Assembly: GCA_024790105.1 (NCBI GenBank)
Contig: GCA_024790105.1_3053.1
Direction: 5' to 3' (one strand)
DNA length: 64,000 nt
From: a phage
Of the stretch, positions 12,584-13,039 are shown one piece after another; position 1 is the stretch's first letter; every line of letters starts with the position of its first letter. A program made the translations under genes and the position numbers. The notes beneath the pieces were generated by a model. It was not told the DNA's origin, searched no databases, and saw only the letters and a list, made by a program, of their open reading frames with translations.

Positions 12584-13039
12584 TTATTTTAAATCATCTG
12601 CCCAATCGAGTTTAAGAGGCTCTTTGTATTCACGATCTAATACGACCGGAATTTGTACATCACCGCTAAATGATAAGGGCCCAACATTATAAGACAATGT
12701 TATATGCGGTGTGTAATCATCAAAATCATGTGTAGCACCTAGTGCCCGCGCATACATGTGTCGACAGCGCAGATATTCAGAATCTAGCACAAGTACAAGA
12801 GTCGATCCATCTTGTGTTTTCCATACTTCTAAATGCCCAGAAGAAGCTACTTCAAAACTTCCACTCGATGGAACATATGGAACATTTACTCTCGAATAAC
12901 ATATAGTCGAATGAATTTTTTCTCTAGGAACTGGATTAGGAACACGTAAAGAGCGCTGGAGTTCTTCCAGCGCGTCAAGTGTTAATTCTGAAAACTTAGC
13001 TGCTACATAAAGACCCGTTGAAAAGTCTTTAAATTCCAT
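12584..13039 (-). CDS. acb1: Acb1 anti-CBASS 2H phosphodiesterase (gene 57B)
   Basis: 151 aa; two H-x-T/S motifs ([18 protein letters not shown]) typical of 2H phosphoesterases; position next to 57A. Confidence 0.75.

Follow-up and report, generated by a model that had tools for sequence, protein, structure and literature searches.

A 3'3'-cGAMP-degrading activity was purified from T4-infected cells and traced to gene 57B, whose product was named Acb1 (Hobbs et al. 2022, PMC9117128). This cGAMP-cleaving activity appears at about 15 min of T4 infection, and a T4 ∆acb1 mutant grows normally on hosts without CBASS and is impaired by a factor of over 300 on hosts that carry it (Hobbs et al. 2022, PMC9117128). 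Structures of Acb1 from Erwinia phage FBB1 showed that the enzyme folds as a 2H phosphoesterase whose HxT/HxT tetrad comprises H44, T46, H113, and T115; stacking against the bases is provided by Y12, W74, F107, and W147, the adenine N6 is recognized by E141, and a closing C-terminal lid covers the ligand (PMC9117128). Cleavage is metal-independent, and rings exceeding three nucleotides (cA4, for example) are left uncut (PMC9117128). The adjacency of acb1 and ipI in T4 was already pointed out in the discovery paper as a small anti-defense cluster (PMC9117128). Expression of T4 57B has been reported as middle/late, and transposon sequencing showed that 57B is not required on E. coli K-12 and that insertions in it become depleted when the host carries CBASS, indicating conditional essentiality. 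Two later studies described how Acb1, by destroying the decoy 2'3'-c-di-AMP or cA3, triggers type I or type II Panoptes systems, from which phages escape by mutations that inactivate acb1.

We analyzed the corresponding locus in a stretch of 64,000 nucleotides of phage DNA (NCBI GenBank assembly GCA_024790105.1, contig GCA_024790105.1_3053.1), hereafter the window. A megablast search with the acb1 region and the first 25 kb of the window returned hundreds of Tequatrovirus genomes at 95–98% identity, and on sequence similarity the window is part of a T4-like myovirus genome. The acb1 (gene 57B) coding sequence was assigned to 12584–13039 from the ORF listing, the T4 identity, and the Pfam and PDB matches; it lies on the minus strand, begins with ATG, and encodes 151 amino acids followed by a TAA stop. 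The initial annotation had reported a 151-aa ORF at this position, giving no strand, had read it as Acb1, and had placed it where gene 57B lies in T4, and each of these statements was borne out. The product was identical to T4 57B (NP_049750.1, RefSeq translation) at 151 of 151 residues by BLASTP, corresponding to T4 residues 2–152, and alignment of the DNA with T4 showed four differences within the gene (at 12974, 12959, 12893, and 12836), all of them synonymous. The protein also matched the Pfam Acb1 family, PF23474, far above the family threshold (E = 2.6e-60; 202.7 bits against a gathering cutoff of 27), with residues 8–149 spanning profile positions 1–144 of 144. Of 50,697 phage records searched by tblastn, 1,471 contained the protein, which was at least 99% identical in 499, T6 among them. 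The gene order, established from Pfam, PHROG, and the T4 and ime09 annotations, was that of T4 (3, 1, 57A, 57B, internal-protein gene, trna.4/.3/.2, tRNAs); acb1 thereby stands downstream of gene 1, between 57A and an internal head protein gene, all on one strand, as in both T4 and ime09. No evidence contradicting this assignment was found in the present analysis, and we regard it as virtually certain, as judged from sequence, that the ORF at 12584–13039 is the acb1 gene (T4 gene 57B) of this phage, predicted to encode a CBASS-countering phosphodiesterase.

The residues on which catalysis and ligand binding depend in the described enzymes were then compared. A pattern search of the protein for H-x-[ST] found exactly two sites, HST at residues 43–45 and HIT at residues 112–114, in the contexts IHSTI and PHITL, in agreement with the two 2H-type motifs, HSTI and HITL, noted in the initial annotation. 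The residue numbering in the window equals the T4 numbering minus 1. The first catalytic motif, H43-S44-T45 (H44/T46 in T4 numbering), is encoded at 12905–12913 by the codons CAT TCG ACT, and the second, H112-I113-T114 (H113/T115 in T4 numbering), at 12698–12706 by CAT ATA ACA, both on the minus strand. The tetrad described in PMC9117128 is complete in the window protein, the catalytic histidines H43 and H112 being present in alignment with Acb1 together with T45 and T114. All nine named residues are kept (in T4 numbering, Y12, H44, T46, W74, F107, H113, T115, E141, and W147), so that the four nucleobase-stacking aromatics and the adenine-reading glutamate all occupy equivalent positions, and the C-terminal lid segment carrying W146 (window numbering) is intact. 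The protein is predicted to adopt a compact 2H phosphoesterase fold purely by homology to the solved FBB1 Acb1 (PDB 7T26/7T27; E = 4e-62, 96 of 141 aligned residues identical, or 68%).

Among the described proteins, T4 Acb1 is the closest, sharing all 151 residues, the downstream intergenic PeSL element, and the order 1-57A-57B-ip with the window and differing from it by the four synonymous substitutions and by the base at 13040 described below. FBB1 Acb1 keeps both the HxT/HxT tetrad and the tryptophan of the C-terminal lid, but its first motif reads HTT where the window has HST, F and Y stand in place of W74 and F107 of T4 and the window, and one extra residue is inserted behind position 79. 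A third entry, PDB 9Q2G (“Anti-CBASS protein Acb1”, 165 aa), bears the same family name and aligns at the positions of both H-x-T motifs, yet is distant from the window protein (E = 0.0044, 20 bits, partial alignment).

While the protein identity, motifs, and gene order come from the present analysis, the enzymology, structure, and phenotype are those published for the identical T4 protein, and this analogy supports carrying cyclic-nucleotide cleavage and rescue from CBASS over to this phage. The gene product would accordingly resemble T4 Acb1 in being a small, metal-independent phosphodiesterase of the 2H family made during infection. It would bind cyclic di- and trinucleotides containing at least one adenosine (3'3'-cGAMP, cUA, cAA, cAAA, and cAAG) and would cut the 3'-5' bond 3' of adenosine via a 2',3'-cyclic phosphate intermediate, with the H-x-T/H-x-T tetrad performing the acid-base catalysis. 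The second messenger of the CBASS cyclase would then be gone before the cell-killing effector is activated. The range of these substrates bears on a different role, directed against type III CRISPR systems employing cA3 or against other cyclic-nucleotide systems: Acb1 degrades cAAA, and its discoverers suggested a possible evasion of cA3-using type III CRISPR; 2'3'-c-di-AMP and the cA3 that Panoptes cyclases produce are likewise among its substrates. We consider this role improbable as the main one, given that cA4 is not cleavable by Acb1, that the benefit demonstrated in vivo is against CBASS, and that the literature retrieved contained no report of phage protection from type III CRISPR by Acb1. 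Even if it were real, it would extend the explanation through CBASS and not replace it.

The likeness of Acb1 to the LigT/2'-5' RNA ligase superfamily (PF13563) extends to the two H-x-T/S motifs and to the 2H fold known from the FBB1 structure, and it raises the question of whether the gene encodes a LigT-like 2'-5' RNA ligase or an RNA-repair enzyme for which cleavage of cyclic oligonucleotides is a side activity. The “RNA ligase” name given to PHROG 755 and, in RefSeq, to T4 57B and its homologues, a weak Pfam match to 2_5_RNA_ligase2 (E = 0.11), and the proximity of acb1 to a tRNA cluster all lean in that direction. That Pfam match is partial and, at 13 bits where the cutoff is 27, lies below the threshold and far short of the 202.7 bits obtained with the Acb1 model; members of the LigT superfamily act on RNA ends, whereas Acb1 acts on cyclic oligonucleotide signals. 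Moreover, it was by its cGAMP-cleaving activity that the identical protein of T4 had been isolated, the phenotype of ∆acb1 was confined to CBASS hosts, and no RNA ligation activity of 57B was reported in the literature found. An RNA ligase or repair enzyme is therefore extremely improbable, and the “RNA ligase” label is, as read from these profile scores, a resemblance at the level of the superfamily only.

The naming of this family in public records deserves a separate remark. Homologues of 12584–13039 in RefSeq (T4, ime09, and others) and in PHROG 755 are still labeled “RNA ligase”, and most GenBank records carry “hypothetical protein”. The established name Acb1 is absent from these RefSeq, PHROG, and GenBank annotations.

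The start of the gene differs from that annotated in T4. The base at window position 13040, one base upstream of acb1, is A here and G in T4. The junction of 57A and 57B reads AATGATGG in T4, where 57A ends in TGA and the annotation of 57B starts at the first ATG, and AATAATGG in the window, where the 57A stop is TAA and the second ATG alone is left; the ATGATG start of T4 57B has thus become ATAATG. This single base change fully explains why the protein has 151 aa here and 152 aa in the T4 annotation. Two antisense ORFs within acb1 on the plus strand (12742–12906 and 12756–12899) were regarded as by-products of coding on the opposite strand and discarded. It is scarcely credible that acb1 is a silent or dispensable relic in this phage and not an active counter-defense gene, for although natural loss-of-function alleles exist (a nonsense mutation in Bas43, and the acb1 mutations of Panoptes escapers), Acb1 activity makes phages sensitive to Panoptes, and loss of the first T4 ATG altered the start context, the frame is intact, the substitutions relative to T4 are purely synonymous, the second ATG is kept in a TAATG arrangement identical to that of the gene 1/57A junction, preserving the start context, and the same 151-aa protein occurs in hundreds of phages.

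Upstream of acb1 on the minus strand lie gene 57A, encoding the tail-fiber assembly chaperone (13039–13281; Pfam PF17594 GP57, E = 5.2e-51), and gene 1, encoding dNMP kinase (13281–13994; Pfam PF21448 DNMK, E = 3.3e-104), whose ATG is deduced to lie at 13994, given its MKLIFLSG start and how ime09 is annotated; gene 3 follows farther upstream on this strand. The TAA stop of 57A and the ATG of acb1 have one base in common (TAATG), and the same TAATG overlap joins the stop of gene 1 to the ATG of 57A. These overlaps suggest translational coupling of gene 1, 57A, and 57B, so that acb1 would probably be translated last in this unit, in the middle/late period. Directly upstream of gene 1, a regular-expression search found a candidate MotA-dependent middle promoter (14018–14043, minus strand; TGCTTCA-11 nt-TATAAT), which, as a pattern match only, could drive a gene 1-57A-57B transcript. 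A scan with T4-specific patterns also placed the late-promoter core TATAAATA at 13644 on the minus strand, within gene 1. Both the MotA-type site and the late core, again as pattern matches only, are possible sources of acb1 transcripts; for this unit, we infer the promoter as well as the coupling. The two matches agree with the middle/late expression of T4 57B, and the MotA-type site agrees also with the activity seen at about 15 min. A generic sigma-70 scan of 11000–15600 yielded 21 promoter-like sites against 18.7 expected from shuffled sequence, and since it was no richer than the shuffled sequence, only the T4-specific patterns were used, as leads. A terminator scan of the same interval yielded 1 site against 2.1 in shuffled sequence.

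On the downstream side, acb1 is followed on the minus strand by an internal head protein gene (12254–12511) encoding 85 aa. The adjacency to an internal-protein gene that had been claimed in the initial annotation is real, and the allele proved to be of the Ip5 type (phrog_3499, E = 1.2e-49; annotated as Ip5 in ime09), not T4 ipI. The N-terminus of the Ip5-type protein, MKTFKEF...TITE, is common to T4 IPI, residues 1–22 alone aligning with IPI; we take this segment to be the capsid-targeting sequence that is removed by the prohead protease. T4 ipI, encoding the GmrSD inhibitor IPI*, occupies the same slot downstream of 57B, with the same targeting peptide and the same flanking PeSL sequences, but T4 IPI has 95 aa against 85 aa for the Ip5-type protein, the mature part is unrelated, and the Ip5-type protein has no solved relative, a search of solved structures with it giving nothing meaningful (best E = 0.76). 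At the DNA level, the window stays near-identical to T4 as 57B ends, across the intergenic region, and over the opening codons of ip; the body of the ip gene is unrelated to T4 ipI, and near-identity returns just past the ip stop.

The swapped ip gene is framed by two copies of a 69-nt direct repeat (family D1) that are 86% identical, both on the minus strand. The first copy (12531–12599) lies just after acb1, of which it covers the last 16 nt, and the second (12201–12269) lies downstream of the ip gene and closes the ip cassette. Each contains TTTACA N17 TACTAT enclosing a stem-loop, at 12570 (spanning 12570–12542) and at 12240, respectively. In the first copy the stem-loop is of 13 bp, with a predicted fold of -20.5 kcal/mol (z = -4.7); that of the second copy is weaker (z = -2.5), and this copy is almost the same as the sequence that follows ipI in T4. 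At their 3' ends the coding sequences of acb1 and the ip gene both run into the repeat, which is the reason their products both terminate in DLK. PeSL (promoter-early stem-loop) elements have been described in the PST/T4 phage pair, with the consensus TTTACW N17 TAYWAT, as mediators of modular gene shuffling (PMC4122927), and the 69-nt repeats around the swapped ip gene are predicted to be PeSL elements by this pattern. A tentative proposal, which we rate as possible though doubtful, is that the Ip5-type protein is an injected inhibitor of a host defense and that acb1 and the swappable ip cassette constitute a counter-defense module. If this were true, the second member of the acb1-ip module would change with the host defenses.

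Several further features were observed on the far side of the ip cassette. The interval 11303–12183 on the minus strand encodes homologues of T4 trna.2, trna.3, and trna.4 of 95, 134, and 61 aa, which belong to PHROGs without an assigned function; they separate the ip cassette from the tRNA genes, beside two known counter-defense loci, and the 61-aa trna.4 homologue is strongly hydrophobic. The tRNA region (8900–11300, minus strand) holds four complete tRNA genes (Arg, Met, Gly, and Leu) against eight in T4, and three ORFs of the homing-endonuclease type lie among them, at 9010–9675 (segB-like), 9846–10367 (HNH), and 10584–11216 (HNH), the last roughly at the place of the T4 tRNA-Gln. Rfam gave two truncated tRNA-like matches, at 10333–10395 and 9803–9855, over the ends of the ORF at 9846–10367, and they could be what is left of tRNA genes that endonuclease insertion disrupted. 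Additional matches to the PeSL pattern (TTTACW N16–18 TAYWAT) were found at 7892, 7555, and 1545 on the minus strand and at 35321 on the plus strand, those on the minus strand falling among small ORFs upstream of the tRNA cluster.

The structure, mechanism, phenotype, and neighborhood of acb1 are already known, and the protein encoded here does not differ from the family's founding member; the gene is therefore ordinary and to be expected in a T4-like genome. The finding raises no new question for acb1 itself and is useful for genome annotation and host-range prediction, as the presence of an intact acb1 copy predicts that this phage would be resistant to many CBASS systems and sensitive to Panoptes-type guard systems.
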